33,555 nt of DNA from Gammaproteobacteria bacterium (GTDB taxonomy: Bacteria > Pseudomonadota > Gammaproteobacteria > JBGSLN01), in the NCBI GenBank assembly GCA_041740675.1, contig JBGSLN010000171.1:1-33555 (forward strand), given 5' to 3'. Each line of letters opens with the position of its first letter. Position 1 is the first letter of the stretch. The notes below the pieces were generated by a model. The model made no database searches, was not told the DNA's origin, and worked only from the letters and a program-made list of their open reading frames with translations. This document shows positions 12,086 to 31,605 of the stretch, one piece after another. Made by a program: the position numbers and the translations under genes.

Positions 12086-13738
12086 TTATTTTAATCCAGT
12101 ATTAGCTTGCGCAATAGTCATATAATCAAGGTGTTTATGAATATCATGAGCTATTCCTTGTGCATCTGTAGCATTAGAATGTACATGCAATTCTCCAATA
12201 TTGTTATTAATTGTTTTTGCATCTCTATTTACAGATGCATTTAATTGATTAGCTGGAATACCTTTTAATGATGTCCATACACTGGTTAATGGAACATGAT
12301 TTTTTATAGCATCTTCAATTAACAAAGCAGCTAACATTTGCTGGGTTTTCTGACTAAATTGCATATTTGGATTAAGATGATATTTAGACACTAACGATTG
12401 TAAAGTATCATGAGTAAATTGGTATTCACCTATAGCAAAACGCCTGCCAGGGTTTAAATAACTTTCACCTTTCGTTGCACTTTGAAGCGCTAAAACTTGC
12501 GATATTGTCATTTTTGATAAAGATGGATCTGAACCTGAAAGGCCTAAAAAACCAAGTGCATTAGTCCCCGTATTATAAGCGTTTGGGTCGTAGCCGCTTT
12601 CCCGTTTTCCTATTAAAGATAATATTCCTGATTTCTCATAACCAGCGTATTTTATATCGTTTTGTAAATTTTTATAGTTTACCCTAGTTAAAACATCATT
12701 ACCCAAAGGTTTAGCAACAAAATTACCAATAACTTTACCAATAGTTTTTGCTGAATGAATTAGTTCTTGCTTTGGATGATTAAATAAATTATTTATATTT
12801 CTTATAATATATGTTAAAGCATTATAAAATTGAATTGATGCTGGCGTTAATTTATAAGCCAATGTGTTTTCTAATTGATTAAATGCATTGGTAGTTTCTG
12901 CCGATGCACTTGTTAATGTTTTAAAAGCTAAAACTTCTTGACCTGTCAAGACTTTATTTTTATTTTCTTTATTAATTTCAGATAAGATAGCTCCTTTTCC
13001 TTGCATTAAAAAGTTTGCTACATCGGTAGAAAATCCCATTGCGGCTAAAATATTATAAGCATCTTGCCGAGTAAGTCTTTTTTCTTCTAAATTTTTATGT
13101 AATGAAGAGGCAATATCTAATAAAACATTTAATGGTTTTCTTTCGGCACCATTATTTGCAATAGAAACTCCTAAAGCATTTAAATATGGATTTAATGCAC
13201 TTGTACCAAAAATTCTTGTTTGAGTCTGGGCAGAACCAATATTGCCTAATGCACCTTCAATACTATTAGGATTACCACCCGTCGTTGCAATAGCTTGTCC
13301 TAAAGAAGATAAAGAACCTACAGACGTATTAAGACGCTGAGAATTATAAAACATGGGCGTGCTCATGTTCGCTATATTTTTTGTCCATTCTGCTGTTTTA
13401 TAGGCGGCATATCCTAACCCTGAAATCATCCCTAAGGGAGCCATAAATCTGGATACTTTTGCCAAGTCTAATAAACCATCCTTTAGACCTGAAATAGACT
13501 TGCTAAAATACTTAACGTCATTTGCTGCTTTCTTTAAATGTTCGGTGGGTTTGTCAGAAAAAATAGAATTTTTTTTATTTGATTTTGGGTCAGTAATGTC
13601 TTGAACGGCATCTGATGAGCTTTTTGCCGCTTTTGTCATGGAATTTAATTGAGAAATTATTTCTTGTGATTGACTTTTTAAATCTTTAGCATCAAGGCTA
13701 AATTTAGTTACTAAATCATCAACTATATTTTTAGCCAT
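12086..13738 (-). CDS. Tape measure protein with C-terminal lysozyme/lytic-transglycosylase-like domain
   Basis: Helical N-terminus; I...ESG....AYN, MTI.QV, A.G.YQF...TL, FS...Q..LA motifs. Confidence 0.85.
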   Translation of the reverse strand: MAKNIVDDLVTKFSLDAKDLKSQSQEIISQLNSMTKAAKSSSDAVQDITDPKSNKKNSIFSDKPTEHLKKAANDVKYFSKSISGLKDGLLDLAKVSRFMAPLGMISGLGYAAYKTAEWTKNIANMSTPMFYNSQRLNTSVGSLSSLGQAIATTGGNPNSIEGALGNIGSAQTQTRIFGTSALNPYLNALGVSIANNGAERKPLNVLLDIASSLHKNLEEKRLTRQDAYNILAAMGFSTDVANFLMQGKGAILSEINKENKNKVLTGQEVLAFKTLTSASAETTNAFNQLENTLAYKLTPASIQFYNALTYIIRNINNLFNHPKQELIHSAKTIGKVIGNFVAKPLGNDVLTRVNYKNLQNDIKYAGYEKSGILSLIGKRESGYDPNAYNTGTNALGFLGLSGSDPSLSKMTISQVLALQSATKGESYLNPGRRFAIGEYQFTHDTLQSLVSKYHLNPNMQFSQKTQQMLAALLIEDAIKNHVPLTSVWTSLKGIPANQLNASVNRDAKTINNNIGELHVHSNATDAQGIAHDIHKHLDYMTIAQANTGLK

Positions 13739-13994
13739 TATTATTTATACTCAAGTATTTGTTATAGTTATCCACATTAATTATTTCTGATAATTTATAA
13801 GCGTCTTCTAAAGAATATAATGTTTCTAACTCATGTAATGTGGCCATCCTAGAAGATATAACTCTTCCTATCAAAGAAGATATATTTTTATATTTATAAA
13901 AAATAGTCTCTTTTGATGATTTTGTTATTGCATTTGCTCTTGCTGCTGCCCTATCGAGTTCTGCATAATCATTTTCTTGATGGCCTCTAAAAAA
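13731..13994 (-). CDS. Tail assembly chaperone extension (gpT-like), reached by -1 frameshift
   Basis: Open -1 frame from slippery T TTT TTA (13994-13988) to TAA at 13731: ...YKNISSLIGRVISSRMATLHELETLYSLEDAYKLSEIINVDNYN... Confidence 0.8.
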   Translation of the reverse strand, partial: FFRGHQENDYAELDRAAARANAITKSSKETIFYKYKNISSLIGRVISSRMATLHELETLYSLEDAYKLSEIINVDNYNKYLSINNNG

Positions 13995-14884: not shown

Positions 14885-16411
14885 CTATAAAATATCAATG
14901 CTATTCATTGTTATTTGTTGTATTGATTGCCCATCGGTATACCAAAAATTGATAATAGGGCTTTTCCTTTGTTGCCTGTCTTCAGCAGAAGGAGGCAATA
15001 TTTGCAAATACCATCCTTGCGTTAACAACGTATTAGAAATATCTAACCTGGCCTGAGCCATCACCACAGCTTTTTGATTAGCAGATAATTCAATACCAAC
15101 CCTAATAGTACCAAAATTTATGGCATCTCTAATGGGCTGTGATAAAGAAAGTCTAATTGAACCATAACCACTATCATTGTAAGGAATAGAATTTAATGAG
15201 GTTAATAATGTCATTAATTGAGTTTGAAATTGTTGATTTAGATAAACCTGGCCGTAAAATGAATCAAGCCATTCCCATGTTCCGGACAAACTACCGTTAT
15301 ACATGAAGACCCAATCATTAGTTGAGTTGGCATAATTCCCATAAAAATTATAGCCATTTGCTAATAACACTTCAGCATCAGAGTCAGAAGAAACAGTTGG
15401 TAACAATCCTGATAATGATTTAAAAGCAATTGTTGCTCTTCCATTAAGCGCGTTAAAGTCAACAGATGCTAAAAAACCAAGCACAAATACCGCAGCATCT
15501 CTTGTAGTATCTCCCAAATCACCTGCTTGTGACCCGCTGACGCCATAAGAATTATTATAGTTTGCATTTTGTATTTTAAATGCAGTGCATGTTGTTGAAT
15601 TTGATATTACAGTATCTGAAGATGTATCCCAATACACATAACAATATCTGTTTTTTAAATCATTAATTTCAGAGGCAAATGATAATTTATCATCTTGAAC
15701 AGGCTCCCATAATGTCGTTAATGATACCCATTTTGTAGTATTGGTAACTAAATTATTTATTGCCGTTACAGGAGTATCAACATTAGAACCTTGAGATAAA
15801 ATCGCTCCTTGAGTTTGTGTCAATTTTAAGTTTGCAGCTAAGGTACTACCAACAGCATCTGTTGCATACGTTATCGTTGATGAAGAACCTGTAGTAGATG
15901 ATTCTATTAAGAAGGTAGCATTTACTGGATTCCAACTTACGTCAACAATTACAGTTGGTGTATTTAAAGCTGTTTCTATTTCAGTCGCCGCTTCACTAAA
16001 ACTAGTAATTGTTGAAAAATTTAAGATTCCAGTGGCTTTAGTGTCACCATCAACAGTAATGCTAAAATTGCCTGAATAAGTTTTTAATTGGTCTATAGTT
16101 AAGCCAACTAGGAAACCAGATTGCAAAAATGCAGCTCGATTTGTTCCTACGTATGGAGCAATTAATAATTGCCCAGGTTTTTGTAAACTATTATCATAAC
16201 CATTAAAATAAACTCTGTTTGCCAAATCATATTCATCAGATGCTTGTCCAAAATATTTTCCCACTTCATCTGCTGAATTAAATGATAAAACTTTTCCTAC
16301 AGGACACAATGAATTTTGTGTCATGAAAACACCATTTAAAATAGGTGAATTACCACCAGAATTTAATACTGACGGGTTTACTGTAACAATCCGAGAGGCT
16401 GGTATGCTCAT
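14885..16411 (-). CDS. Tail sheath protein (DUF3383)
   Basis: SIPAS.IV.VNP.VL, YF.GYDNS, NGYNFYG, IPYN..G, R..R.SP....WYTDG.SIQ. Confidence 0.92.
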   Translation of the reverse strand: MSIPASRIVTVNPSVLNSGGNSPILNGVFMTQNSLCPVGKVLSFNSADEVGKYFGQASDEYDLANRVYFNGYDNSLQKPGQLLIAPYVGTNRAAFLQSGFLVGLTIDQLKTYSGNFSITVDGDTKATGILNFSTITSFSEAATEIETALNTPTVIVDVSWNPVNATFLIESSTTGSSSTITYATDAVGSTLAANLKLTQTQGAILSQGSNVDTPVTAINNLVTNTTKWVSLTTLWEPVQDDKLSFASEINDLKNRYCYVYWDTSSDTVISNSTTCTAFKIQNANYNNSYGVSGSQAGDLGDTTRDAAVFVLGFLASVDFNALNGRATIAFKSLSGLLPTVSSDSDAEVLLANGYNFYGNYANSTNDWVFMYNGSLSGTWEWLDSFYGQVYLNQQFQTQLMTLLTSLNSIPYNDSGYGSIRLSLSQPIRDAINFGTIRVGIELSANQKAVVMAQARLDISNTLLTQGWYLQILPPSAEDRQQRKSPIINFWYTDGQSIQQITMNSIDIL

Positions 16412-16420
16412 TTTTTATCC

Positions 16421-16948
16421 TCAATAATTTATTTCTGTATCAACATTTTCAAAAATATTGATGCCAAGTTCATCTGGAAAATCCTGCGGAATTACAATAG
16501 TTGCGTTATATTGCAAATATATTGTAAAAGTCCATCTATCTTGATATTGCATTTCTCCTGTAATAAAAGGCGCTTGTAACGCATTGCTGCAATAAAGCGA
16601 CGATATGCCATCAGGAAATTGCGATACCGTATATTCGCTTCTAAAAACGGACAATATTGCTCTTGCAAAATCTCCCGCTTTCCTTCCGTATAAATCTAAT
16701 TGAATAGCTACTTTAGTGGGATTGTTTACCGTAGCAGAGCCATTAATTTCACTATAATTAATTTCGGGGGTTTCAAGCTCATATTGTCCCATCTCAGTTA
16801 AAACGGCAAAGTTTCCCAAAGGAGAAGGTGTCCTATTTGATTGCGCACGAATTATTTCAATAGGCACACCTTCTATCATTAAAAATGGCTGCAGAAAATT
16901 TGCTAAAGCATCAATTACTTGATCAACAGTTATGGAAGCTGTAAACAT
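16421..16948 (-). CDS. Tail terminator / neck protein
   Basis: RAQ.NR.P.P, Q.D.YG, Q.PF..GE.QY..RW......QYN; position before sheath. Confidence 0.75.
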   Translation of the reverse strand: MFTASITVDQVIDALANFLQPFLMIEGVPIEIIRAQSNRTPSPLGNFAVLTEMGQYELETPEINYSEINGSATVNNPTKVAIQLDLYGRKAGDFARAILSVFRSEYTVSQFPDGISSLYCSNALQAPFITGEMQYQDRWTFTIYLQYNATIVIPQDFPDELGINIFENVDTEINY

Positions 16949-17310
16949 ATAGCCACCTTACACCAGGTTTTCCATCTTTCTAAAATTTGATTTACTAACC
17001 ATTGTTGATTATTAAACTCTACTAAATCACCGCCTTTTATTTCTGGACGTACTACAGCAAATAACTGTCCTTTTAAATATAAAACTTTATAAGTCCCTTG
17101 AATATTTAACCCATCTATTTGCATTAAATCTTCATTGGTAACAGCTTGAATATTTGAAAATCCAGTTATTGGATCAGCATATAATGGCTCTTGTCTTCTT
17201 CCATTATTATCAGGTATTTGATATCCTATTGATTGCCTTATCGTAATTAAAATATCTTGATTGATTATATTAATTGCAGAGTTTGCATAACTTTGTACAT
17301 CAATCATCAT
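16930..17310 (-). CDS. Head closure / head-tail connector protein
   Basis: Q......L..IDGLNIQG, GGDL, WL....LE.W..W. Confidence 0.75.
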   Translation of the reverse strand: MMIDVQSYANSAINIINQDILITIRQSIGYQIPDNNGRRQEPLYADPITGFSNIQAVTNEDLMQIDGLNIQGTYKVLYLKGQLFAVVRPEIKGGDLVEFNNQQWLVNQILERWKTWCKVAICLQLP

Positions 17311-17947
17311 TCTTTACCACTTTATAAGAAACAGAATCAAGCATAAATTTTGTATCTATTAATGGCTTATTAAATCCTTTTTTCTTTATTGTTGATGACG
17401 CATTCCCTGGATCGTTCCATGCAATTATAGATTTCCGTATATCAGATTTTTGTTTTTCACCAACGGCCGATAAAATTACATTTATATTTGTCTCTCCAGC
17501 TTTTAATGCGTTCAAAACAACTCCAGCCCATTCTCCTTTTTTTTCTTCTATAGCAGTCCTAAAAAATGGTCTAGAAGGAATTGTTATCGAGTGACCTTTA
17601 ACAAAATTTTTAGTTTCAAAATTAGATTCAGATTTTTTTACAAATCTTCCTTTTTTTAAAAATTTTCCTTGTTTATTCATTTTTTTATATGTTTTTTTAT
17701 ATGCTAAATTATTTTTATCTTCTTCTGAAATGTCAGATACTTTATTTATAGCATTTCCTTTTGAATCTCTACTGCCTGCTTCTATCGTTGCTCCAAATTC
17801 ATTTATAAAAGCAACCGTTGCAACTGATGTTCCATCAGGATAAGTTGACTCATCAAAAAAGCCAGTTTCAACATAGCTCCCATCCTTTATATTTCCCAAT
17901 TCCATTAATATTTTTTTTATTTTTTCTCCACCTTTTACATGTTTCAT
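17300..17947 (-). CDS. Neck / tail-completion protein
   Basis: TYPDG..VA.VA..NEFG, IP.RPFFR, NA.ST.KKKGF.KPLIDT..M..SV. Confidence 0.75.
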   Translation of the reverse strand: MKHVKGGEKIKKILMELGNIKDGSYVETGFFDESTYPDGTSVATVAFINEFGATIEAGSRDSKGNAINKVSDISEEDKNNLAYKKTYKKMNKQGKFLKKGRFVKKSESNFETKNFVKGHSITIPSRPFFRTAIEEKKGEWAGVVLNALKAGETNINVILSAVGEKQKSDIRKSIIAWNDPGNASSTIKKKGFNKPLIDTKFMLDSVSYKVVKNDD

Positions 17948-18115
17948 TTATTTAAAACCAAAAATTAGAGGTATTAATTCTTTTATAAAAAAACTTGATG
18001 CAAGAATAATTAAAGAAATTCCTATTGAAACCTCCAAAAATTTACTTTCAACATTCCGCATCTTTATGCCTTCAAACCATTTAAATTCAATTATTTTTTT
18101 GTTATCATTGTTCAA
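17948..18115 (-). CDS. Small single-TM peptide A (TTG start 18115, 55 aa; or ATG 18061, 37 aa)
   Basis: LNNDNKKIIEFKWFEGIKMRNVESKFLEVSIGISLIILASSFFIKELIPLIFGFK*; its stop abuts the neck-gene ATG. Confidence 0.6.
   Translation of the reverse strand: MNNDNKKIIEFKWFEGIKMRNVESKFLEVSIGISLIILASSFFIKELIPLIFGFK
18100..18108 (+). promoter_or_regulatory. Extended -10 promoter of sRNA A
   Basis: TGtTATCAT, ending 7 nt before the first stem base of the predicted RNA. Confidence 0.65.
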
Positions 18116-18198
18116 TGGTTACTGCTTTCACTTTAGTAATCATCACTCTTTTGGTGCTCTAACACGCAAAAGAACCAACCCGCTTCGGCGGGTTTTTT
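18115..18198 (+). ncRNA. Predicted antisense sRNA A (three hairpins)
   Basis: ATGGTTACT/AGTAATCAT stem; TCTTTTG-GTG-CTCTAA-CAC-G-CAAAAGA; terminator AACCCGC-TTCG-GCGGGTT plus T-run. Confidence 0.7.
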
Positions 18199-18367
18199 AA
18201 TATTTAAACGCTAAAATTAATGGAACACTTACATGCACCAAGGCCGCCAGCCCAAATAACCATACTCCTTTGTGCAAAACGCTTATTAATTTATTCATTA
18301 ATTATTCATTAGTAATCATTTCAAACGTCCAATCTTTTACTTTAAACTTTATTTTGTTATACTTCAT
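18197..18367 (-). pseudogene. Small single-TM peptide B with in-frame TAA at 18302-18304 (33-aa restart possible at 18298)
   Basis: MKYNKIKFKVKDWTFEMITNE*LMNKLISVLHKGVWLFGLAALVHVSVPLILAFKY*; similar to peptide C on both sides of the stop. Confidence 0.6.
18355..18363 (+). promoter_or_regulatory. Extended -10 promoter of sRNA B
   Basis: TGtTATACT at the same relative position as in units A and C. Confidence 0.65.
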
Positions 18368-18370
18368 TTT

Positions 18371-18463
18371 GTAACTATTACCTTGTGTTTTTAGTAGTTA
18401 CCAAGTTTCTAGTGCGTCAACACGTAGAGACTCAGTTTGCCCCGTTAAAGACGGGGCTTTTTT
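18371..18463 (+). ncRNA. Predicted antisense sRNA B (three hairpins)
   Basis: GTAACTATTA/TAGTAGTTAC stem; AGTTTCTA-GTG-CGTCAA-CAC-G-TAGAGACT; terminator GCCCCGT-TAAAG-ACGGGGC-TTTTTT. Confidence 0.7.
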
Positions 18464-18465
18464 AT

Positions 18466-18666
18466 TTATATCAATCCATTTGGAGCGATTACATGAATAA
18501 GTAAACTAGCCCCAACACTTGTGCTTAAAAAAGCAACCGCATAAATTATTTTCACAAATGCTTTTTTATTAGTAACCAAATCAATTTCAATATCTTTCAT
18601 TTTTATTCTTAGTTTGTTATCATTGTTTATATGAACATTCCTGTATAAAGTTATCATGTTCATCAT
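18466..18666 (-). CDS. Small single-TM peptide C (start uncertain: ATG 18666/18657/18600 or ATA 18630)
   Basis: ...INNDNKLRIKMKDIEIDLVTNKKAFVKIIYAVAFLSTSVGASLLIHVIAPNGLI*. Confidence 0.65.
   Translation of the reverse strand: MMNMITLYRNVHINNDNKLRIKMKDIEIDLVTNKKAFVKIIYAVAFLSTSVGASLLIHVIAPNGLI
18615..18623 (+). promoter_or_regulatory. Extended -10 promoter of sRNA C
   Basis: TGtTATCAT; TTTGTTATCATTGTT is identical to unit A. Confidence 0.65.
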
Positions 18667-18719
18667 TACTCGGTACTAGTCATACGCGAGTAACAATGCC
18701 CGCTTACGCGGGCTTTTTT
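18631..18719 (+). ncRNA. Predicted antisense sRNA C (three hairpins)
   Basis: ATGAACAT/ATGTTCAT stem; TTACTCG-GTA-CTAGTCA-TAC-G-CGAGTAA; terminator GCCCGC-TTAC-GCGGGC-TTTTTT. Confidence 0.7.
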
Positions 18720-18843
18720 ATATCAGCCCATGCGGGAAAAACGCTCGAACCACTAAAAATATAGAAACGGCAACAGAAATACACAAGATTGATCTACCTA
18801 TATAACGTATCAAAAATTCATTGCTTAGTGTTTCTGAATTCAT
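18718..18843 (-). CDS. Small single-TM peptide D, 41 aa (not in ORF track)
   Basis: MNSETLSNEFLIRYIGRSILCISVAVSIFLVVRAFFPHGLI*; RBS AGGA; ends PHGLI versus PNGLI in peptide C. Confidence 0.65.
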   Translation of the reverse strand: MNSETLSNEFLIRYIGRSILCISVAVSIFLVVRAFFPHGLI

Positions 18844-18865
18844 ATTAAAAATATCCTAGAATTTT

Positions 18866-19285
18866 TCATTGGTAATTATTATAAAAACACATAACTTGAG
18901 GCGATGAAAAATATCTAAATCCTCTATCTGAACTCGTTGACTGCCAAAATGCTGCCCCATATTGTGTCTGTATAAACCATTCCATTGTGAATGGAGCATC
19001 ATATTTAAAAGAAGCGCTTACACTCCCCTCTGTTGCAGATTCAACTCTTCCAACGACAGGTATTGATCCGTTCGTATTTAATGCGCCAAATAAAATCGCC
19101 AAATGCGCGGTTAGTAAATAAAGCAGTCTTTTTCTTCTGTTTAAATTTTCAATAGCAGAGCCACTATCATTTGTTAAATATAATGATGCTTCATCAAAAT
19201 AAAACTCCAACGTTGCATTGTTTACATTAACAAATTGCGGAAACTGTAATTTAAATTCAGCCGGATCAAAAACTACTACCGCCAT
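18866..19285 (-). CDS. Head-tail adaptor (DUF4054)
   Basis: VFDP..F...FPQF, LL..LTAHLA, GRV.SA.EGSVS, WF.QT.YGA.FWQ. Confidence 0.88.
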   Translation of the reverse strand: MAVVVFDPAEFKLQFPQFVNVNNATLEFYFDEASLYLTNDSGSAIENLNRRKRLLYLLTAHLAILFGALNTNGSIPVVGRVESATEGSVSASFKYDAPFTMEWFIQTQYGAAFWQSTSSDRGFRYFSSPQVMCFYNNYQ

Positions 19286-19692
19286 TATTCATCAGCCTTG
19301 AATCGCTCTATTTTATGAGCTTCTTTTGAACATCCTTCAAATCCAGTTTTTACATTTGAATTAATCAAATCTATGATTTTTGTATCAAGTTCTTTTTCGT
19401 TTTTAGCATCTATAATTGCTTTTGATGAAAAAACAGAAAAACTTTCGCCTAGTTGCTTTTTTACACTTTCCCATTTTTCTTTATTTACCTCAGTTATTCC
19501 ATAATGAAAATTAGATAAAACTTTAGGCTGTTTTTGTTGTTCAGGATGAAAAGAGCCAAAATGACGGTCTTTTTGAGCGCCTTTAATTATTATTTTTTCA
19601 GATGCTTTATTTCTTCCTTCACCACAATCATTGTTTAAATAAAAAATAAAATCATTGGGCAATCTAGAGCCAACATATACGCAATCATTCAT
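19285..19692 (-). CDS. Phage morphogenesis protein following the capsid gene
   Basis: V...LP, I.G, YGIT.V....W, K.G.E pattern; position. Confidence 0.55.
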   Translation of the reverse strand: MNDCVYVGSRLPNDFIFYLNNDCGEGRNKASEKIIIKGAQKDRHFGSFHPEQQKQPKVLSNFHYGITEVNKEKWESVKKQLGESFSVFSSKAIIDAKNEKELDTKIIDLINSNVKTGFEGCSKEAHKIERFKADE

Positions 19693-19694
19693 AA

Positions 19695-20693
19695 TTAAAC
19701 TCCTATCATTCTTGCAACAAATACTGGGCGATAAATAATTGCCCCAACAGTACCTTGAGCTTTTTTCTGAGAATAAGCAGAGTGTTGAATAAAGAGAGGA
19801 AAAGCTCTTAATTTTAAGTTATAGCTAACTTCTTCTGTAAGTTGCCCTTCAATGTTGTCAGCTTTTAATCTTACTACTTCGCCAGCTAATGTTGACATTT
19901 GTGGAGCAGTAACAATTTTTAGATTTGGAAAGTTTGTTTTAATTAAAGTTAAAACATTAACATTATACTGGGTGGCTTTATTAAGGTTTACTGCAATATC
20001 TGGAGATAGTGCCATTGTCATATCAGTATTTGCATCAACAAGGCCATCACCTTGACTTATTAATTGTTTAACCAATAAAACAACATCGCCATAAACTTGA
20101 AGCGCATCTTTATTTTGCCAAATGATGTTAGGAGCTGTTCCAGATGGAGGAATAGTTGCTGGCAAACTTGGATCGTTTAATAATCCATAGTTTTGCAGTC
20201 CATCCACGCCAAAAAAATAACTTTTATTTTGATATTGATTAAGTGTCCAAATTGATGATTTATCTAATTGACTAACCCAATCAATTTGCGCCATGCCAAT
20301 TCGTTCTTGCTCAAGCTGTCCATATCGGGTAAATGTTTGATAAAGATAAGGTTGGCGTTGAGGGAAGTTAATATTGGCTTTAGCTGCGCCATCATTATTA
20401 TAATCGCCATATGATTCTACTTGGCCTGTGAATTCAAGCGTTTTAAACATAACCGTATTATCAGTCCATGAGCCTATCATTCTTTCTGAGCCAGCAACTT
20501 CTACAGCCTTTAATGGAGCAAATAAATATTCAATTACTTTTGGATCGATATAAGTGGTAAAAATAACTGGTAATGCTGAGTTAGGAGCACTGCCTAAAGT
20601 TGGTTGAGCATCTTCGGCCAAAATTTTATATTGATGATTATCAAAAATTACACCGTAGCTATTTAATTTTTTTTTCATTGGGGTTATTAACAT
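19695..20693 (-). CDS. Major capsid protein (DUF2184, HK97 fold)
   Basis: DAQP.L....N, TYIDP, G.W, E..G....YGD, N..YFFGV.GLQNYGLLNDP.L, T.GAI.YRP. Confidence 0.92.
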   Translation of the reverse strand: MLITPMKKKLNSYGVIFDNHQYKILAEDAQPTLGSAPNSALPVIFTTYIDPKVIEYLFAPLKAVEVAGSERMIGSWTDNTVMFKTLEFTGQVESYGDYNNDGAAKANINFPQRQPYLYQTFTRYGQLEQERIGMAQIDWVSQLDKSSIWTLNQYQNKSYFFGVDGLQNYGLLNDPSLPATIPPSGTAPNIIWQNKDALQVYGDVVLLVKQLISQGDGLVDANTDMTMALSPDIAVNLNKATQYNVNVLTLIKTNFPNLKIVTAPQMSTLAGEVVRLKADNIEGQLTEEVSYNLKLRAFPLFIQHSAYSQKKAQGTVGAIIYRPVFVARMIGV

Positions 20694-21225: not shown

Positions 21226-22485
21226 TTAAATTTTAACTCGTGAGATACTTTTCGTTAGAAAAGATGCCCCATTATCTTTATCCATTGCTAGATTTGAAAC
21301 TTCAAACCGCTTATTATTTTCTTGAGATATTTGCATTTCACAAAGCCTCTTTAATGAAGTAATTTCTTTCAAATCATCGTGCTTAATTGATAAGGCATCT
21401 AATGCAAATCGATAAACATTTTCTGCATTATCAATGCCAGAAACTTCACCTATTAAAGGGCGAACATCATTTTTTGCTTGCTCTAGAGCAGCAAATTCTG
21501 AGCGGATGCTTTCTCTTATACTGGTGGCCATTTCATCCATAGCTTTTTTCATATCAGCCTCATTTTTTTTGTTATCAGTTTCGCTTTCTTCATCTTCTGT
21601 TTTTTTATCTTCTTTATTATCGTTTTCTTTATTATCATCTGTGTCTTCATCCATTCCTTTGTTTTCAAGCATTCCACAAATTTTTGCTATTTCTTCATCA
21701 CTAAATCCTTTATCTTTTAGCATTTTTTTAGCTGTTTGTTTGCTATCTTCTTCAACATCAGCCGTAATTGCTTCAGGATTATTTTCAGCTTCATTTTCTT
21801 GTTCTACACCTAATACAACATCTAATAGGTTATCTAGTTGCTGTTCGCTAATATCGATGTCCATTGCTTTAATTTTATTAAAGGCTTTTTTGTGTAATTT
21901 GTTTTTTTTCATTTCAAGCTCGTTTTCTTTTTTAAAAGGATTATTATCAGAAACTTTTACATCATGACCTGCCCTACCGGTCTCAACTAATGCAACATGA
22001 TTACCCACTATATTTTTCATCCAGCCATCATATTTCTCTCCTTCGAACTCACCTGGTTCCATGATGGCCTCATATGCGTAGCCGCATGACAACTCTTTCA
22101 TGCCACCTAATTTTTTATCAGCAGCTTCAATAGCCGCTATGGCTTCTTCATCCCAAAAAAACAAAGTGTTTTTGAGATAGGGGGCTTCAAAAATTGAATC
22201 GGTGCCTGTTGTTCCTATAACTAAGTCCTTGTTAGGGGAATCTGCAAACATAGGGGTATGTTTTTCGACAATTTGCACCCCATTAAAACTATCTGCCGCT
22301 TTTTGTAATTCTTTTCCTGGTCGATATAGATAATAAATTTTCTCCGGCTCTAACCCTAAGGCGTAATAATTCGGCACTTCTTTGCCATAATATGGATTAA
22401 TGGTCTCTTTAGAGATTGGCGAAGAATCAACCCTAAGCCGTCCATCTGCATCAATAAATCTTGAGCTTTTTTCTAATTTTTCCAT
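21226..22485 (-). CDS. Prohead protease/scaffold (DUF2213)
   Basis: D.DGRL.V..S.ISK..I.PY.G.E.P, ELSCGY, GNHVALV..GRAG.DV; acidic scaffold-like C-terminal half. Confidence 0.9.
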   Translation of the reverse strand: MEKLEKSSRFIDADGRLRVDSSPISKETINPYYGKEVPNYYALGLEPEKIYYLYRPGKELQKAADSFNGVQIVEKHTPMFADSPNKDLVIGTTGTDSIFEAPYLKNTLFFWDEEAIAAIEAADKKLGGMKELSCGYAYEAIMEPGEFEGEKYDGWMKNIVGNHVALVETGRAGHDVKVSDNNPFKKENELEMKKNKLHKKAFNKIKAMDIDISEQQLDNLLDVVLGVEQENEAENNPEAITADVEEDSKQTAKKMLKDKGFSDEEIAKICGMLENKGMDEDTDDNKENDNKEDKKTEDEESETDNKKNEADMKKAMDEMATSIRESIRSEFAALEQAKNDVRPLIGEVSGIDNAENVYRFALDALSIKHDDLKEITSLKRLCEMQISQENNKRFEVSNLAMDKDNGASFLTKSISRVKI

Positions 22486-22621
22486 ATTCTACATTAGCTT
22501 TTTAAACATATATTACCAAATAAATATTAATAATGTAAATACATTTATGATATTAATAGTAATATATTATTTTTTATAAGTTCTTATAGATAATTATATG
22601 TTTTTTGATATTAATTAGTTA

Positions 22622-23404
22622 TTAATATGGTAACAGCGTTTCACTGATGCATCTGCAATTTATTTTTTGTCCAGGAAGAATATATTCTCCAGAAATTAAA
22701 CACCCTTTGCGAACATCGTATATTTTTCCATTCGCAGCAACATGATCTGGGCGAGGGGTTTTTCCTGCGCTACTATGTAACCATCTTGCTTGATTAAACC
22801 CCAATTCAATTTGTCGATTTCTATTAAAAGACGCCGTTGCTTTATTACATTGATCTCTTGCAATCAAAGCGGCCTTATTTTTTGTTAACTTGTATTTTTC
22901 TTTTATATTGTCATAAATGTAAGATGAGTTTCTTCCCATTGACCATCCAGTATTAACAACTGTTTTAACATCTGTAAAATATTTTTGGGGGATTGATTTT
23001 ATAAGATTTACATTTTCCTCAATTATAGCAGCCATCGCATCTTGCTGTTCTCGAGTCATACTAAATTTTACGGTAAATCCAGCCTCTTTTAATTTATTTT
23101 TAAAGGCATTATCGCTTTGTTTTAATATTTTTTCTGCATTTATTTTTGCAAGCTCTAAAGAAATTTTAGAAAATTTAACAATCCATCGTTTTGCAACACG
23201 ATTAAATTCAATCATAAAATCTTTAATGGGGCTTGCATCCGCAGCAATCACAGCAGGCTCATTTTTATTATAAAAAGACTTGACCCAATATTGCGTGCTA
23301 TCAGCCATTTGTTTAATTAATTTATCTAATTTTTTTTGATACTCAATACGGATAGCCGCGCTTGGCCTAATTGGCTTAATCGTCTTCGTCTTTTCTTTCT
23401 TCAT
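22622..23404 (-). CDS. Head morphogenesis protein (SPP1 gp7/Mu F-like)
   Basis: ENV.LIKSIP..Y, A.LIARDQ..KA, W.HS.....PR..H, PG..INCRC. Confidence 0.9.
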   Translation of the reverse strand: MKKEKTKTIKPIRPSAAIRIEYQKKLDKLIKQMADSTQYWVKSFYNKNEPAVIAADASPIKDFMIEFNRVAKRWIVKFSKISLELAKINAEKILKQSDNAFKNKLKEAGFTVKFSMTREQQDAMAAIIEENVNLIKSIPQKYFTDVKTVVNTGWSMGRNSSYIYDNIKEKYKLTKNKAALIARDQCNKATASFNRNRQIELGFNQARWLHSSAGKTPRPDHVAANGKIYDVRKGCLISGEYILPGQKINCRCISETLLPY

Positions 23405-24944
23405 TTTCTTCGACTCCTTCTTCATATGGCTTTTCATTTTCTTCCGTATTTAAGCTCTCTTCATCAATATCAGATACTTCAATTGCGTTATAGCCACTTT
23501 CTTCATCACTCGCTAATTTCTCTCGCACTTCCATGTTTGATAAAACGCCGTGGTCGATATAAATGCTATCTTTTTGCGCATTAGTAAGCTTGATTGTCGC
23601 TTCATCTTTTGCGTCCATTTGCCACAAAGGATTAAATCTAAAGCTAATTGACGGATCTATTTCACCAAATTCTGACAACATTAATATTTTTAAAATTGTT
23701 TCAATCGGATATCTATAATGGGCTTCTTGCTCAGCACTTTTTCTATCATAGAAAGCACGTATTTCACCGTCTGCTGTCGCATTAAATCCTTGAGGACTCA
23801 CTCCAAGTAATTTAACTGCGGGGATGCCAGATACTGCACACATGTGCTCTTGTGATTGAGATTGCAACTCATGTAACCCAGATAATGGAACCGCCAATTG
23901 CGTTAATTCTTCGGTCTCTCTATCAAGTAACATCAATCCTTGATTATTTCTAGCTGCCATGAAATATTGTATGCGAGCAGATAAAGAATTGCCGCTCTCA
24001 TTATTATCTTGCAATCTTTGGACCATGTCTGTTGACAAAGTTAAGGTGCTAAAATTATTCAGCAAATTAGATATCGCTTGTTTAGTCCTAAGCCAATTAT
24101 TCACATAAGGTTCTGCAAGCTGGTTCAGGCTAATGCCTGCAAAATTAAACATGGGCTTGAGCAAATCAGGCAATGGCCTTGTTATAATTGTTAATAATCT
24201 TGATGCATGTACTTCTTTGCCCAAGACATACCAAACTGAAGGCCTATAAAAATCAGGGGCGACAGGGTTATTAGAATTATAAAAACTAGGCGTACTCCAA
24301 ATTGGCTCAACACATTTAGCAATTCTAAAAGAGCCTTTTTTAATTGTTTTTGGAGATAAAATTAAGGGTTTAGAAGAGGCAGATCCATCGATATCAAGCA
24401 TAATTTGAGCGCGACCAAAACAGTCAACATGCTCTGCTGCAGTTCTAATGACTGACCTCAAATCAATTTCTTTTAATTTTTTATCCAGTATTGCAATCTT
24501 TTCTTTAGAGTTTTTATCTTGCTTAGAACTTGTGGTTAATGTTATCCATTCCCGCGTTATCTCCATTGCATTAACATAAGCAAATGATCTATATTCAGCA
24601 ATCGTCGTTAATTCTGACAAATAAGCAAACCCTGGGAACCCTTGGTGCGTTCCATATCCATAACAATTTTGACCGAACATACTATATCCAATGCTGCTAT
24701 CACAGGCCAACTGAACAGGTGCTTTTACCCCTTCTGGCAAAACGCACTTCAAAATTTCTGGCGCTTGAAAGGGATATTCTTTAATTAAATTTTGCTGATT
24801 ATAGCCTTTCAATTCATCTAGGACTTTATATGCAGCATTGGTTGCTTGTCTTATTTGATAAATTCTATTATTTGGATTGTTTGGAACAGAATCTTGCGCT
24901 ATTTTATCTTTTTTGAAATTAAACCATTTTTTAAAATCTAACAT
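23376..24944 (-). CDS. Portal protein (DUF1073)
   Basis: FPG..YL..L, EP.W..P..YN, VH.SRL, LSGL..LQ.Q.QE, IP.VKLLG.SP.GFNA. Confidence 0.92.
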   Translation of the reverse strand: MLDFKKWFNFKKDKIAQDSVPNNPNNRIYQIRQATNAAYKVLDELKGYNQQNLIKEYPFQAPEILKCVLPEGVKAPVQLACDSSIGYSMFGQNCYGYGTHQGFPGFAYLSELTTIAEYRSFAYVNAMEITREWITLTTSSKQDKNSKEKIAILDKKLKEIDLRSVIRTAAEHVDCFGRAQIMLDIDGSASSKPLILSPKTIKKGSFRIAKCVEPIWSTPSFYNSNNPVAPDFYRPSVWYVLGKEVHASRLLTIITRPLPDLLKPMFNFAGISLNQLAEPYVNNWLRTKQAISNLLNNFSTLTLSTDMVQRLQDNNESGNSLSARIQYFMAARNNQGLMLLDRETEELTQLAVPLSGLHELQSQSQEHMCAVSGIPAVKLLGVSPQGFNATADGEIRAFYDRKSAEQEAHYRYPIETILKILMLSEFGEIDPSISFRFNPLWQMDAKDEATIKLTNAQKDSIYIDHGVLSNMEVREKLASDEESGYNAIEVSDIDEESLNTEENEKPYEEGVEENEERKDEDD

Positions 24945-26544
24945 TGGCAGGTCTCGATATCTCATCAATCATGGATTGAGTAATTTTTATTATGTTATAA
25001 CCATCATGATAACACATCATTACCGAATCAGCCAAGTTAGGAGATTTAGCGCCATCAGGCTTTTTATTAACTATAATTTTGCCTGCCCCATTTTTACTAT
25101 AAGTCGGTTGTGATAACTCTAATTGCAATTTATTTAAATTTTTTAAGTTACCGGGTATTGAAATAATAGAAGATGGATTGCATTTTATGCCTTCTTGCAC
25201 AGCTCGATATGTGTTTAAAAACCTAAACCGTAATTGCCACCAAGCTTGTGCTTTTCTATTTGCAAACATGTCTTCATTTTTTATTCCTTCGACCATATTA
25301 GATTCTGGCTTCCATACTGCTGCTGAACTCCTAAACGATTTTACATTAATATGTGTTTTTAATTCTTCTTGAATTATTCGTGCGTCTCCTTTTACACCGG
25401 CCCCAATTCCTTCAGCATCGTAATATAGGGTTTTATATTCCCTCTCATTACAAATAAGAATTGTTTGTTTGACAGTATGCAATATATCGCTATTTTTTCC
25501 GCTCCAATCATCTATATGTTCTATAACTACTCCATGGCGCATACAAATTGCATTTAAGTCTGCGCCTTCATCCGCAACGTCTAATGCAGCAATTCTTTCG
25601 CCACTTTTCGAAATCCCTAATTTCTCATGTGCATCAATTGCAGCTTGTACCCACGCAGATGGAATTAACACACCATCAACTGAACCAGAATAATCCAAAT
25701 CAATTTCTTGGGCTAAAGTAATTGGGTCTAAATTAAGTTGTTGCCTGTGATACCATGCGTCGTCTTTACGCGGGTCGTTCCGCCAATGAAATGTGAAGAC
25801 TTGATATTTACCGCTAAATCGTTTTTGAGCAAACACATTACCCATACCGCAAGGCGTTGAAACGTCCATTCGGAAATTTGTAGTTTGCGATAATGAAGCC
25901 TCAATTAATTTAGCCTGCTCCACATGCGCTGATTCATCCAAACAATAACCGGTTGCACGTCCGCCACGGCCAATGTTATTGCCGCTTTCTCCTTTAATAA
26001 TTGAACTTGTTTCTGGAATAGTGATTAACTTTTGTTTCGAGTTTTTTTCTCTCGACCATCCTCCACGAAACTCTCTTGGTAAATTTGCAAGAAATACTCT
26101 TCCTTTTTCCAAAATTGAGTCTAAATCTCCAAGCTTATCTACTAGTTCTTCTTTACGGCTCCCAAAGCCAAAAACAGCTCCATGATTGAAAATTGCTAAT
26201 GAACAAAAGGTCGCAACACACAACCAGGTCACGCCCATATCGCGTGATTTCTCAACAATCAAGGGTCGTTGGTTTTTCCAACAATCAATGACCGTATTAA
26301 CAAATTCTTCTTGCTTTTCAAATAATAAAAAAGGGATCGAGACTGGCAGTCCACGTTCAATATTACGCGGATTAGTCGTCATGCCCCAGTCAATAATAAA
26401 TTGCGCTATATGATGTTTATAATACGTAAATAAAGCAGGAATTTTTTCAGGATGTTGGCGTATAAAAGCTAATTTTTCAATGCGTCGTTTAAAGACTTTG
26501 ACGTAATCAGGGTTTTTAAAATCAAACTCGAAAGGGATGGGCAT
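24931..26544 (-). CDS. terL: Terminase large subunit
   Basis: Walker A-like KSRDMGVTW, GRGGR, Walker B YCLDE, STP.G, nuclease DVADEG and SPNLADS. Confidence 0.95.
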   Translation of the reverse strand: MPIPFEFDFKNPDYVKVFKRRIEKLAFIRQHPEKIPALFTYYKHHIAQFIIDWGMTTNPRNIERGLPVSIPFLLFEKQEEFVNTVIDCWKNQRPLIVEKSRDMGVTWLCVATFCSLAIFNHGAVFGFGSRKEELVDKLGDLDSILEKGRVFLANLPREFRGGWSREKNSKQKLITIPETSSIIKGESGNNIGRGGRATGYCLDESAHVEQAKLIEASLSQTTNFRMDVSTPCGMGNVFAQKRFSGKYQVFTFHWRNDPRKDDAWYHRQQLNLDPITLAQEIDLDYSGSVDGVLIPSAWVQAAIDAHEKLGISKSGERIAALDVADEGADLNAICMRHGVVIEHIDDWSGKNSDILHTVKQTILICNEREYKTLYYDAEGIGAGVKGDARIIQEELKTHINVKSFRSSAAVWKPESNMVEGIKNEDMFANRKAQAWWQLRFRFLNTYRAVQEGIKCNPSSIISIPGNLKNLNKLQLELSQPTYSKNGAGKIIVNKKPDGAKSPNLADSVMMCYHDGYNIIKITQSMIDEISRPANVRF

Positions 26545-26545: not shown

Positions 26546-26941
26546 TTACTTCATTAACTCGCTATAAATTTCTGACGCTACAATCGGATCGTCGGTTTGC
26601 ATTTTATCTATTCCCACTTCTACACTATGCGCGACTTCTTGCTTCTCTGATTGTTTTAAACGTTGTTTTCCAAGCCAAATCAGCAATGATTTATCACCTG
26701 TGAGCGCAATCTCAAATTGCTTTACTTTTAAAAGCACATTTCCTGATTCTCTTTTTTTTTGACTATACTCAGAAAATGAAACTTTATGGTCTTTAACGCA
26801 ATTTTTATATAAAGTTTCATGATGATAACCCAGATGACTTGCTATTTCTCTGCCAGAGCATCCTGCTTCTAATAAATAATCAACTCTTTCCCAATCAATT
26901 CCAGCTGGCGGTCTTCCTCTTTTATGCAAATCTTCTTTCAT
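26546..26941 (-). CDS. terS: Terminase small subunit
   Basis: GRP, HTH (CSGREIASHLG....TL), L...Q...A..G...LLIWLGKQ.L.Q; directly upstream of terL. Confidence 0.85.
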   Translation of the reverse strand: MKEDLHKRGRPPAGIDWERVDYLLEAGCSGREIASHLGYHHETLYKNCVKDHKVSFSEYSQKKRESGNVLLKVKQFEIALTGDKSLLIWLGKQRLKQSEKQEVAHSVEVGIDKMQTDDPIVASEIYSELMK

Positions 26942-27221
26942 TCATTTTATCTCTAACAGATATTCTTTTTGGTAAATTATGATAAATTTAACCATTTTAT
27001 GATTATCTATATTATAACTTAATATTATCGTAATTAATTAAATTAGTAATATATTACCTTATTTTTAATGTTTGTGAAACTTTAATTCTGAATTAAAAAA
27101 ATGATTAAAAAAGAAGTGTCTAAGAAAGCTTTAAAGAAGAAAAAGTAATACTAACTCGCTGTGTTTGATAAATGCTTTTTTATTTATTTACAACCCCTTA
27201 CTACCTTTCCCTAAATAAACA

Positions 27222-27809
27222 TTAATCGCCTTTATCTAATTTAATCAAAGAATCATTTAATGTCTTAAGTGCAAGCCCATACAAATATGAATCACCTTCC
27301 GTAAGAACTTGCAATAAGTTTGCTTTTTCATGCAAGTATACTTTTGCAAATTCAGGATCATGTTTAACAATTGTTGATGTATTTGAAATTAAATCAGCAA
27401 GTTTAATAGTTTTTGCTTCTGGAGGTGCTTTAGCGATATGTTCTAAATCAATAAATTTTCGTGCTGTTCTATTGCCGTCGGATGGTTTTGAAATATCTGT
27501 AAGATAATAAACTAAAGTAGCGACTTCTTCTCCGAAATGTTTTTGAATATCCCTTAACTCTATTTTTGTATCTTCTACCACATCATGTAACAAGGCTGCG
27601 GCTAGCATCTTATGGTTATCGGTAACGTTCCTTACTAAATCACAAACTTCAAGAGGATGAACAATGTAAGGCTCATTAGTATATTTACGTAATTGTCCCA
27701 CCGCTGCATGAGCTGCAGTTGCAAAAGTTTCTGCTTTCCCAACAAATTCGTGTTTATATTTAGAGAATGCATGATCAGCAATCATCTTTGGGTAGTCACT
27801 TATATTCAT
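27222..27809 (-). CDS. HD-domain hydrolase, RelA/SpoT/Mesh1-like small alarmone hydrolase
   Basis: AH...Q.RK...EPYI.HP.EV, AALLHDVVEDT, LTD, IKLAD..SN. Confidence 0.88.
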   Translation of the reverse strand: MNISDYPKMIADHAFSKYKHEFVGKAETFATAAHAAVGQLRKYTNEPYIVHPLEVCDLVRNVTDNHKMLAAALLHDVVEDTKIELRDIQKHFGEEVATLVYYLTDISKPSDGNRTARKFIDLEHIAKAPPEAKTIKLADLISNTSTIVKHDPEFAKVYLHEKANLLQVLTEGDSYLYGLALKTLNDSLIKLDKGD

Positions 27810-28729: not shown

Positions 28730-29232
28730 CTAACCCCCTCACTTAGTTTTAAAGTTGATATTTCTCTTACAACAGCGGGAGCTTTATCGTAAGAAATTTT
28801 ATTTATACTTTTCGCTTCATCTTTAGCAATGGTTTGATACAAATCTATAAAACGATTAGCGGTAAATTGTAATTGAGTTTCTGTTTGCATGGCTAAAGCT
28901 CTAGCGCCTCCCAGCAGCCCTACAACTCGCTGAGTAAACTCATCATCTCCCGCAGAACTTCGTTTTAAATAAACCTGTAAATTCTGCCATGCTTCATGTG
29001 CGGCAATTTTAAAATCACCATCTTTTCTCAAAAATTCAAACACATTCGCCAATCTTGGGAAAAAATTACAACTCGTTATGCATTGGTCTATTGCGTTGGC
29101 AACTTCATGATATTCAAATTCTTTTAATTTTTCCCACCACATCATTAATCGCTCGTTCGAAAATTGCTGCTGATATTCCTCGGTTAATCCGTAAACTAAT
29201 GCTTTGAATTTATTTTGATCGTCAGGTTTCAT
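28726..29232 (-). CDS. Replication accessory / helicase loader-like protein (DUF6475-like)
   Basis: Follows initiator; WW..L......V..A......FFP..A, A..AW, D......V..LGG. Confidence 0.65.
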   Translation of the reverse strand: MKPDDQNKFKALVYGLTEEYQQQFSNERLMMWWEKLKEFEYHEVANAIDQCITSCNFFPRLANVFEFLRKDGDFKIAAHEAWQNLQVYLKRSSAGDDEFTQRVVGLLGGARALAMQTETQLQFTANRFIDLYQTIAKDEAKSINKISYDKAPAVVREISTLKLSEGVR

Positions 29233-30157
29233 TTTTCTTCCAATTTTCTAAATCAATGCTGTTAAAATCTTGTATTGTTTTCTCTCTGCGTAGTTCGTCT
29301 TTAGTTTTTTGTTGAGGACTCCCCTTGTTGAGAAAAACTTTTTTGTATTTTCCTTTCAACACTTCGCTGAACTTTTCTTTGTTGATGAGCCACTCAAAAT
29401 CTGCTTGCCATCCTCGGTTACCTCCACCTAGCAAAAAATCAGTTTGAGCTACGTCGTTAAAAAATTCTTCCCAAAATTGCAAGTCAGGATGCTCTCGCCA
29501 TCGAGCACGCACATTACTTTTTTTGCGGTCTGAAAGTTTTTCAACCCTCTGCAGGCTCGGCAAAATGCGATGATACAACTCGATGATTTTTTCCTGCGGG
29601 CAATGGGAGATTTTTTCGGTATTAATTTTTTCTGAAAGATTTTTTGTTTGTTGCGCGTCAATATCACCGTTAGGTGATATTATTATTTCTTTATCTTTAT
29701 CTTTATCTCCTCTTATCTTATCTGGGGCGTTACACTGCGTTACATTGCGTTTCACTGCGTTACATCGCGTTACACTAACATTAATTTCTTCATTTTCTGG
29801 ATAATTTATAGACAAATCTTGCCTTTTTTCTCGATATTTGTTTACTCTTTGACTAGAATTATCTTCGCGGAGAGGTTGGCGCTTCTCCCATCCTGTAAGT
29901 ATATCTCCATCTAAAACCCTACCTTGCATAGCTCCTAAGACTGCGGTTACATCCTCAATTTCGATATCCAATGCACTAGCAATATCTTCTGCGTTACATT
30001 GCGTTTCACCGCGTTTCACTGCGTTACAGGCAGAAGCGAGCAAATGAATGTAGATTGAAATTACAACACTAATAGATTTTTTAGATACTTTTGATATGGT
30101 TCGCCATTTTGGATCGTTTGGCATATCGTTCCATAATCTTATCCATTGATTTGCCAT
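29222..30157 (-). CDS. Phage replication initiator (O-like)
   Basis: W.RLW.DMP.DPKWRTI...S, GW.KRQ..RED, DKDKDK linker, C-terminal R....RARW...FL.G....W.ADFEWL. Confidence 0.88.
   Translation of the reverse strand: MANQWIRLWNDMPNDPKWRTISKVSKKSISVVISIYIHLLASACNAVKRGETQCNAEDIASALDIEIEDVTAVLGAMQGRVLDGDILTGWEKRQPLREDNSSQRVNKYREKRQDLSINYPENEEINVSVTRCNAVKRNVTQCNAPDKIRGDKDKDKEIIISPNGDIDAQQTKNLSEKINTEKISHCPQEKIIELYHRILPSLQRVEKLSDRKKSNVRARWREHPDLQFWEEFFNDVAQTDFLLGGGNRGWQADFEWLINKEKFSEVLKGKYKKVFLNKGSPQQKTKDELRREKTIQDFNSIDLENWKKNET
29727..29776. repeat. Iteron cluster 1: five tandem 10-bp GCGTT(A/T)CAYY repeats (probable origin)
   Basis: gcgttacact gcgttacatt gcgtttcact gcgttacatc gcgttacact, inside the initiator gene and flanked by AT-rich DNA. 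Confidence 0.8.
29991..30030. repeat. Iteron cluster 2: four tandem 10-bp repeats
   Basis: gcgttacatt gcgtttcacc gcgtttcact gcgttacagg. Confidence 0.75.
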
Positions 30158-31598: not shown

Positions 31599-31605
31599 GC
31601 CATAA

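Follow-up and report, generated by a model that had tools for sequence, protein, structure and literature searches.

A candidate mobile, type I toxin–antitoxin-like antisense cassette arrayed in tandem in the late operon of a temperate phage

Type I toxin–antitoxin (TA) pairs have been described chiefly on plasmids, on chromosomes and in a small number of prophages of model bacteria, and their roles in phage biology are poorly understood. Classical type I toxins have promoters of their own. Here we describe a ~920-bp array at positions 17948-18865 of a 33,555-nt gammaproteobacterial contig (JBGSLN010000171.1, assembly GCA_041740675.1), which was analyzed over its whole length and is referred to below as the window; it carries a temperate phage genome. 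The array comprises three full units of ~257 bp and a 5'-truncated fourth, and each full unit, or cassette, combines a minus-strand gene for a small membrane peptide with a predicted plus-strand RNA that is antisense to the 5' leader of that gene. We read the array, with a probability of roughly 0.65, as a mobile, phage-borne, type I TA-like cis-antisense cassette of ~250 bp per unit. Judged from their sequences, both the peptide and the RNA appear to be new, while the logic would be type I-like. No description of the family was found in the literature (open-access PMC and bioRxiv text, supplementary files apart), and the tail string APNGLI of the peptide is absent from the same body of text.

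Among the described systems, SymE/SymR of E. coli is like the cassette in that an antisense RNA lies opposite the 5' end of the toxin gene, and the SymR promoter is located within the symE coding region. SymE, however, is a non-hydrophobic, nuclease-like protein of 113 aa, chromosomally encoded and induced by SOS, whereas the window encodes ~55-aa peptides with a single transmembrane (TM) segment in phage late operons; SymE/SymR has no sequence or Rfam similarity to the window module. The five Ibs/Sib copies and the three tandem Ldr/Rdl copies resemble the cassette as diverged, multi-copy hydrophobic peptides, each with a cis-antisense RNA of its own specificity (PMC4147584). Unlike the cassette, they are chromosomal, possess their own toxin promoters and encode peptides of 18-35 aa. 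Sib covers the whole open reading frame (ORF) and Rdl covers the 5' untranslated region, not the ribosome binding site, whereas the predicted cassette RNA covers the leader including the Shine–Dalgarno (SD) sequence. Neither Ibs/Sib nor Ldr/Rdl gave a family match to the window module.

The hok/sok systems of plasmid R1 and of prophage Sp5 (hokW/sokW) share with the cassette a membrane peptide, an antisense RNA directed at a structured 5' leader and residence on mobile elements (PMC4147584; PMC8621323). They are unlike it in that Sok acts via the mok frame, and in that the TM segment of Hok is N-terminal with a periplasmic C-terminal domain. The Rfam sok model reached 17.3 bits against a gathering threshold of 59, on the wrong strand, and Pfam Hok/Gef was matched by none of the 13 members of the peptide family described below. 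The C. difficile prophages phiCD630-1 and phiCD630-2 likewise encode toxic peptides with antisense RNAs (CD0977.1-RCd11 and others); these modules are duplicated between the prophages, with cross-reaction only between near-identical RNAs, and a role in prophage maintenance was shown (PMC7699646). In the constructs described there, the antitoxin RNAs were made from their own promoters and the toxins were placed under an inducible promoter (PMC7699646). The cassette differs from these modules, whose RNA–toxin overlap lies near the 3' end of the RNA, whose host is a Firmicute and whose peptides bear no relation to those of the window.

The elements of the array are given below; they comprise predicted small RNAs (sRNAs) A to C and peptides A to D. 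R1 denotes a covariance model trained on the window's three RNAs only, and A7 the peptide family profile.

17948-18115, minus strand: peptide A, 55 aa, TTG start; A7 E 1.1e-20; 64% identical to the metagenomic protein P0003
18080-18108, plus strand: promoter of sRNA A from the promoter scan; -35 TTTAAA at 18080, 17-nt spacer, -10 TATCAT; extended -10 TGTTATCAT at 18100-18108
18115-18200, plus strand: sRNA A, 86 nt; minimum free energy (MFE) -28.2 kcal/mol, z -6.1; R1 95 bits; CAC linker, U6 run
18177-18194, plus strand: GC-rich terminator stem of sRNA A, followed by T6
18197-18367, minus strand: peptide B, ATG start at 18367; in-frame TAA at 18302-18304
18336-18363, plus strand: promoter of sRNA B from the promoter scan; -35 TTTACT at 18336, 16-nt spacer, -10 TATACT; extended -10 TGTTATACT at 18355-18363
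18371-18465, plus strand: sRNA B, 95 nt; MFE -32.7 kcal/mol, z -4.6; R1 76 bits
18439-18457, plus strand: GC-rich terminator stem of sRNA B, followed by T6
18466-18666, minus strand: peptide C; ATA at the family start position (18630-18628), open upstream to an ATG at 18666, 66 aa; A7 E 2e-18
18615-18623, plus strand: extended -10 of sRNA C, TGTTATCAT, i.e., TATCAT with TG, found as repeat D1 in the repeat search; its -35 is below scan detection
18631-18720, plus strand: sRNA C, 90 nt; MFE -26.4 kcal/mol, z -4.0; R1 82 bits
18698-18713, plus strand: GC-rich terminator stem of sRNA C, followed by T6
18718-18864, minus strand: peptide D, 5'-truncated, with a 41-aa ORF at 18718-18843; A7 positions 10-53, E 1.1e-11; in-frame TAG at 18856-18858

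Six further modules for which DNA was available lie on three viral contigs and in two bacterial genomes, and together with the window's three they form a set of nine full modules.

L011: viral contig of 60% GC; between the tail-tube-position gene and the next tail gene
L012: 25-kb viral contig, the same contig as L017; directly upstream of the large terminase gene
L018: 12-kb viral contig; after the DNA-ejection gene
G135: bacterial genome, complete, from the class to which the host belongs; immediately ahead of baseplate genes
G293: another complete bacterial genome from that class; a tandem pair of copies adjoining, and divergent from, the portal gene

One line of evidence for the antisense reading is the placement of the promoter. 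An earlier note on this DNA, made from the letters and ORF translations alone, had placed a plus-strand extended -10 inside the first codons of each peptide gene, and all three were recovered at 18100-18108, 18355-18363 and 18615-18623. The distances from one extended -10 to the next are 255 and 260 bp, and that of each full unit falls within codons 2-5 of the peptide on the opposite strand. The antisense pattern TGnTAnnnT, with its 3' end at +5 or +8 and its other end at +13 or +16 of the start codon, is present in 9/9 full modules, against a background of 2/46 window ORFs of at least 90 aa having it at that position. The two wobble positions that the -10 requires always hold the needed base. 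In each of the three window modules, the Asn supplying the G of TG is encoded by AAC, a codon accounting for 24% (109/447) of late-gene Asn codons, and the GC-rich L011 has AAT at the -11 position, where AAT makes up 5/34 Asn codons. The wobble bases thus follow the promoter and not the codon bias, which indicates that the promoter itself is under selection. In the second copy of G293 the N-terminal peptide sequence differs (N-F-N-I), yet TGTTAAAAT stands at the same position. At the two key positions, all full-length family members have residues that A-x-C followed by A-x-x codons could encode; this reading comes from the peptide alignments and, for proteins without DNA, is a statement of compatibility alone.

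Terminators complete the predicted RNA genes. The stems lie 60-85 nt past the promoter; terminator-like sites number 5 in the array against 1.2 expected, and elsewhere in the window they are at shuffle level (15 vs. 10.9 and 6 vs. 8.9). In silico, the array has RNA genes with their own promoter and terminator, as type I systems do. The architecture that the earlier note had sketched was reproduced, with lengths of 86-95 nt in place of 84-93 nt: hairpin 1 of 8-10 bp and its large loop, the linker CA(C), hairpin 2 (a 7-8-bp base, one bulged G and a top of 3 bp) and the terminator. For sRNAs A, B and C, 0/200 shuffles fold as well. The units are mutually ~59-61% identical and this three-hairpin fold is nonetheless kept, as the same note had remarked. 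By sequence, perfect complementarity between each sRNA and its peptide leader runs from the start codon as far as the upstream stop; in agreement with the span first proposed, the U-tract ends 2 nt inside the stop codon of the next ORF (A and C) or 3 nt before it (B). The hairpin-1 loops read CUUUC (A), CCUU (B) and UCCU (C), the last two being the anti-SD loops noticed previously. Calculated duplex energies are -161 to -176 kcal/mol for cognate and -46 to -64 kcal/mol for non-cognate pairs, and complementarity of more than 11 nt to the sRNAs was found nowhere else in the window.

The same layout recurs outside the window. In all nine full modules a GC-rich hairpin with a U-run directly follows the upstream stop on the antisense strand; the predicted antisense RNAs measure 64-95 nt (z -2.7 to -6.6), and every module has an anti-SD in or at hairpin 1, opposite a recognizable SD 7-9 nt from the start. 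The SD sequences seen across the modules are AGGAAGG, AGGAG, AAAGGAG, AGAGGAAA, AGGAAAGG and GGAGTAGGAG.

The earlier note had proposed a search with a model built from the three RNAs. R1 finds the antisense leader of L012 (61 bits, E 4e-10) and nothing else in 45 kb, and it misses the shorter two-hairpin RNAs of L011 and L018. sRNA A is 74% identical to the L012 antisense leader, the corresponding ORFs being 65% identical, and hairpin 2 differs between them by a compensatory U-A to G-C change. In the alignment of the four RNAs, 86% of cells pair and eight pairs are changed on both sides, against 3.0 in shuffles (0/500 reach 8); the covariation score is 0.43, compared with at most 0.17 for slid partners. 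Within its own genome, R1 returns the three window copies and one site on contig C241 at E 0.56 (L010, 1501-1576), which proved to be a plain bidirectional terminator between convergent host genes, and in the class sample it matched 0/150 other genomes. Rfam, the comparison by which the earlier note had asked that novelty be judged, returned nothing at the gathering threshold over the whole window; the best sub-threshold match was P9, at 21 bits against the 43 needed, and was terminator-driven.

The peptides form a small family of their own. The first profile was made from the window peptides and one first match. A search of 1.84 billion representatives with this profile retrieved 12 proteins at E<=1e-3, and a word-index search with the enlarged alignment retrieved 13 at E<=0.01 among 293 candidates; two in each set are the window's own. 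All members are metagenomic singletons, one labelled 'hypothetical protein' and the others unnamed. Most measure 52-61 aa, with two longer gene-caller versions (70 and 72 aa) and one 40-aa short form, which agrees with the small hydrophobic proteins, below ~60 aa, of type I systems. The shared pattern is M-x-N-D-N-K...KW-x-x-G-x-K-M...KFL...IG-(TM)-IAPNGLIH, with an N-terminal motif N-D-N-K or K-Y-(N/S)-K and a short conserved tail of IAPNGLIH or PLILxFK type. A positively charged N-terminal part of ~25 residues (net charge +2 to +4) precedes one C-terminal TM helix, whose best 19-residue hydropathy window is 1.5-2.6, and a short tail of charge 0 to +1; by the positive-inside rule the N-terminus is probably cytoplasmic.

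Database profiles did not place the family. Pfam gave nothing for 13/13 members (best E at least 0.057) and NCBIfam no match; the best PHROG hit was phrog_34597 (E 0.0054), for peptide A alone, and the best PADLOC hit was Csx18 (E 4e-4), in 1/13 members. Three family peptides searched by tblastn against phage records and plasmids had no match at E<=1. An alignment of peptide A with P0003 (A6) found nothing in metagenome or genome contigs, and P0003 matched nothing in viral contigs and itself alone in the protein index. In GTDB samples, the family occurred in 2/400 other genomes at the level of the phylum and in 0/400 at the level of the class, where one weak match, G631 (E 0.006), was dismissed as lying within an ORF of 428 aa; the match G128 (E 8e-4), within an ORF of 403 aa, was likewise discarded.

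Among the four window copies, peptide A is the sole undamaged full-length ORF, with a GAAAG SD-like motif 9 nt upstream of its start. In B, whose N-terminus resembles that of the metagenomic protein P0006, the TAA splits the gene into a 21-aa ORF and a 33-aa TM-only ORF (18197-18298), and the same TAA is present in contigs of two sequencing runs. A 65-aa gene-caller version of C is recorded as P0002. The N-terminal remnant of D extends to 18864, and D is without a promoter or RNA of its own; its duplexes with the three sRNAs reach just -11 to -15 kcal/mol. N-terminally short, TM-only forms recur, namely D (41 aa), the 33-aa ORF of B and the metagenomic P0015 (40 aa), and they start near a hydrophobic, often Met, family-conserved position just ahead of the TM segment; they may be products of decay or a second isoform. 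Start codons in the nine full modules are TTG in three, GTG in two, ATG in three and ATA in one; the non-ATG starts TTG and GTG, in 5/9, fit tightly limited translation.

Phage morons (lambda bor and lom, HK97 gp15) are compact late-operon inserts with their own promoter and terminator, often encoding a small membrane protein. The cassette array is likewise an insert, with the difference that its promoter and terminator serve the antisense strand and not the protein gene. Its two flanking genes, both assigned with PHROG, are as follows.

17300-17947, minus strand: downstream flank, tail completion/Neck1 protein, 215 aa (phrog_222, E 4e-45)
18866-19285, minus strand: upstream flank, virion structural protein, 139 aa (phrog_302, E 5e-29)

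In a relative from IMG/VR (L002; proteins 47-51% identical), the homologues of these two genes lie 11 bp apart in the same gene order, which identifies the array as an insertion. The earlier note's description of three ~258-bp units between two connector genes holds for the three full units; it has to be amended in that there are four peptide ORFs and only one flank is a connector gene. The insert has a GC content of 31%, the phage 34%. The cassettes occupy five different junctions in six (pro)phages, and the large terminases of the window phage and of the L012 phage show no similarity (E 1.4). Unrelated terminases alongside a shared cassette imply that the cassette has moved between unrelated phages. 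Tandem amplification also recurs, in the window, in G293 and possibly on a contig from which two metagenomic members derive: P0006 and P0013, one A-like and the other B/C-like, are both recorded with a longest contig of 42,450 bp and may be two copies in one phage. The architecture of the cassette, its conservation, the peptide family and the mobility were all observed in silico, and the geometry, the peptide family and the six further modules bear out the earlier suggestion of an undescribed cis-antisense, type I TA-like module arranged in tandem in a late operon.

The array in G293 (L024, 1246-1730) adjoins a portal gene of P2 type and is not within a co-directional late operon. There, the same ~50-nt stretch with a 14-bp bidirectional terminator precedes each copy, and the terminator of copy 1 has a promoter-like site upstream of it on the sense strand, TTTACC-18-CATAAT (1764 to 1735).

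We infer from this architecture that the sRNAs would be transcribed, would repress the peptide genes and would thereby restrain a peptide that could harm the membrane. The antisense RNA is predicted to start at the peptide start codon and to pair with the whole 5' leader, including the SD. First contact would be a loop–loop interaction through the anti-SD loop of hairpin 1, followed by full duplex formation; pairing would block ribosome binding and would probably expose the duplex to RNase III. A lysogen would make only the RNA, from a promoter of sigma-70 type, and any leaky late transcripts would be quenched by it. Induction would bring strong late transcription in the convergent direction, which may outrun or occlude the RNA, so that the peptide would appear late and only when sense transcripts of the late operon exceed the RNA. 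The peptide would be transcribed as part of the late operon only, unlike classical type I toxins, and its effect could be membrane damage, an influence on lysis timing or exclusion. Such RNA-gated peptide expression is the logic of a type I pair of the SymR or Sib kind. What would be new in the cassette is the promoter in conserved codons, the co-directional position in structural operons without a toxin promoter, the horizontal mobility and the recurring tandem amplification.

Several observations weigh against this interpretation. No sense (minus-strand) promoter-like site was found in 17948-18866, nor was one seen ahead of the peptide start in either L011 or L018; the sole sense-strand promoter-like site of L012 (2484-2512) overlaps the start codon, and a candidate for the toxin promoter usual in type I systems lies ahead of copy 1 in G293. 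No similarity of the peptides to any known type I toxin was found. The window region is present in 5 DNA runs of 2 studies, and among the runs listed, which were DNA runs only, none was an RNA run containing it. ORF damage affects three of the four copies in the window (the stop in B, the ATA in C, the truncation of D). The modules are not mutually independent, A resembling L012 and G135 resembling copy 1 of G293, and the covariation set consists of four related sequences in an alignment fitted to the model, in which hairpin 2 is shifted by one column in B and C, lowering the count.

The strand of the RNA meets a further group of objections. An early idea, by which G-U pairs would single out the plus strand as the structured strand, was dropped after the full count, which gave 11/150 for antisense and 18/148 for sense. 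The sense strand folds better in 2/6 cases (C and L018), the window scan includes two minus-strand terminator-like sites with weak U-tracts at hairpins A and C, and the terminator is bidirectional in G135 and G293. The two strands cannot be distinguished by their folds, which leaves the promoter and the U-runs as the basis for orienting the RNA.

The alternative that survives best, though we regard it as unlikely, keeps the same architecture and the antisense control and makes the peptide a dose-limited accessory inner-membrane factor, acting in superinfection exclusion, lysis timing or holin modulation, so that the cassette would be an antisense-regulated moron. The conserved ~25-residue N-terminal part and C-terminal tail suggest a specific partner and not generic membrane damage; the co-orientation with late genes in the window, L011, L012, L018 and G135 points to a late peptide, and the missing sense promoter and the lack of matches to known toxins also speak for it. 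A small single-TM peptide with cis-antisense control, a weak start and a sequestered SD is, on the other hand, a type I hallmark (PMC4147584). The decay of the ORFs of B, C and D with RNA genes left intact is what a costly peptide would lead one to expect, and PADLOC defence models remained unmatched save for the one member with Csx18. A role as the main holin had also been considered and was set aside: the phage has its own holin (1360-1767) and endolysin (1769-2242), so the peptides are not its main holin.

A bolder reading, which we consider improbable, regards the cassette as a horizontally mobile lock-and-key element in which the N-D-N-K or K-Y-S-K motif doubles as the antisense promoter. 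Here, arrays of diverged RNA genes, retained as their peptide genes decay and expressed in the lysogen, would interfere with the late polycistronic mRNAs of superinfecting phages that carry the cognate cassette, shutting down the peptide and, by cleavage, the essential downstream structural genes. If true, this would be a new superinfection immunity acting on late mRNAs, and it would explain why unrelated phages share the cassette.

More doubtful still is a reading in which the RNAs are the main product: those of the prophage would trigger cleavage of its own leaky late polycistronic mRNAs or of the cognate ones of superinfecting phages and lower the expression of the downstream structural genes, the peptide ORFs being secondary or decaying. 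All three RNA genes are intact where the ORFs of B, C and D are damaged, and they have diverged into distinct specificities; the leader is better conserved than the ORF between A and L012 (74% vs. 65%), and the cassette is always upstream of essential late genes that need read-through. Against this stand the protein-level conservation in 12-13 metagenomic proteins and six loci, which places the peptide under selection, the confinement of complementarity above 11 nt to the array itself, and the intact ORFs of the single-copy cassettes L011, L012, L018 and G135.

Least probable of all, and very much so, is the absence of any antisense RNA, with the hairpins serving as sense-strand elements of the late mRNA (processing, stability, translational control) and the -10-like motifs arising as by-products of the N-terminal peptide sequence: although the sense strand folds significantly (z -3.0 to -6.4), the G-U counts do not favour the antisense strand and the motif overlaps the conserved N-D-N-K or K-Y-S-K residues, the antisense strand has a U-run behind the hairpin in 9/9 modules and the sense strand of window B, L011 and L018 has none, synonymous positions fit the promoter against codon bias, and copy 2 of G293 retains TGTTAAAAT in the same place with N-F-N-I residues.

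Whichever function the peptide serves, the type I TA-like cassette adds a peptide and RNA family without a database or literature record, known only from the structural gene clusters of (pro)phages in uncultured communities and moving between unrelated phages. The promoter in conserved codons, the RNA on the exact leader and the dependence on read-through mean that synonymous changes would separate the peptide from the RNA, and the tandem array, whose RNAs are intact while its ORFs decay, serves as a natural experiment to tell which of the two partners is selected. Should the RNAs act on incoming phages, they would constitute an RNA-based layer in phage–phage competition; should the peptide tune lysis or exclusion, it would represent a new class of late accessory gene.

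The window is an entire contig (C171), taken from a metagenome-assembled genome of 2.78 Mb in 341 contigs that is 80% complete, and the PHROG matches of the window describe a temperate, myovirus-like phage genome that is seemingly near-complete. The main genes assigned in this way are listed below.

31694-32404, plus strand: CI-like repressor with peptidase domain
31335-31634, minus strand: Cro-like gene
29222-30157: replication initiator
24931-26544, minus strand: large terminase, at the start of a single minus-strand block
19695-20693, minus strand: major head protein
14885-16411, minus strand: sheath
1769-2242, minus strand: endolysin
1360-1767, minus strand: holin, at the end of the minus-strand block

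The block runs from the large terminase through the portal, major head, sheath and tail genes to the endolysin and holin. No integrase was seen on window 1-33555, and both contig ends fall inside unannotated ORFs. Among 50,697 phage records, none exceeds 48.5% identity to the major head protein; the nearest are mostly from phages of Proteobacteria, which makes a proteobacterial host probable. A blastn search of phage records with 17300-19300 was without a match. For the two flank proteins, Neck1 and the 139-aa one, genome contigs had no match and viral contigs yielded the distant L002 alone; the host family comprises 5 genomes, of which the window's own is alone in having the Neck1 gene.

Over 16900-19700, contigs of 4 DNA runs consist of short identical pieces without joints, some parts being uncovered; the only difference among the compared contigs is an A>G that one run shows at 18730, within the 3' portion of ORF D. 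Further intergenic gaps of more than 130 bp in the minus-strand late block lie at 13738-13925, 22485-22622 and 26941-27222, and neither R1 nor the peptide profile matched in these three gaps. The only other strong GC-rich plus-strand hairpin with a T-rich tail is at 2235-2251 (ACGCCC...GGGCGT, then TTTGAATT); it sits at the 5' end of the endolysin gene, antisense to it.

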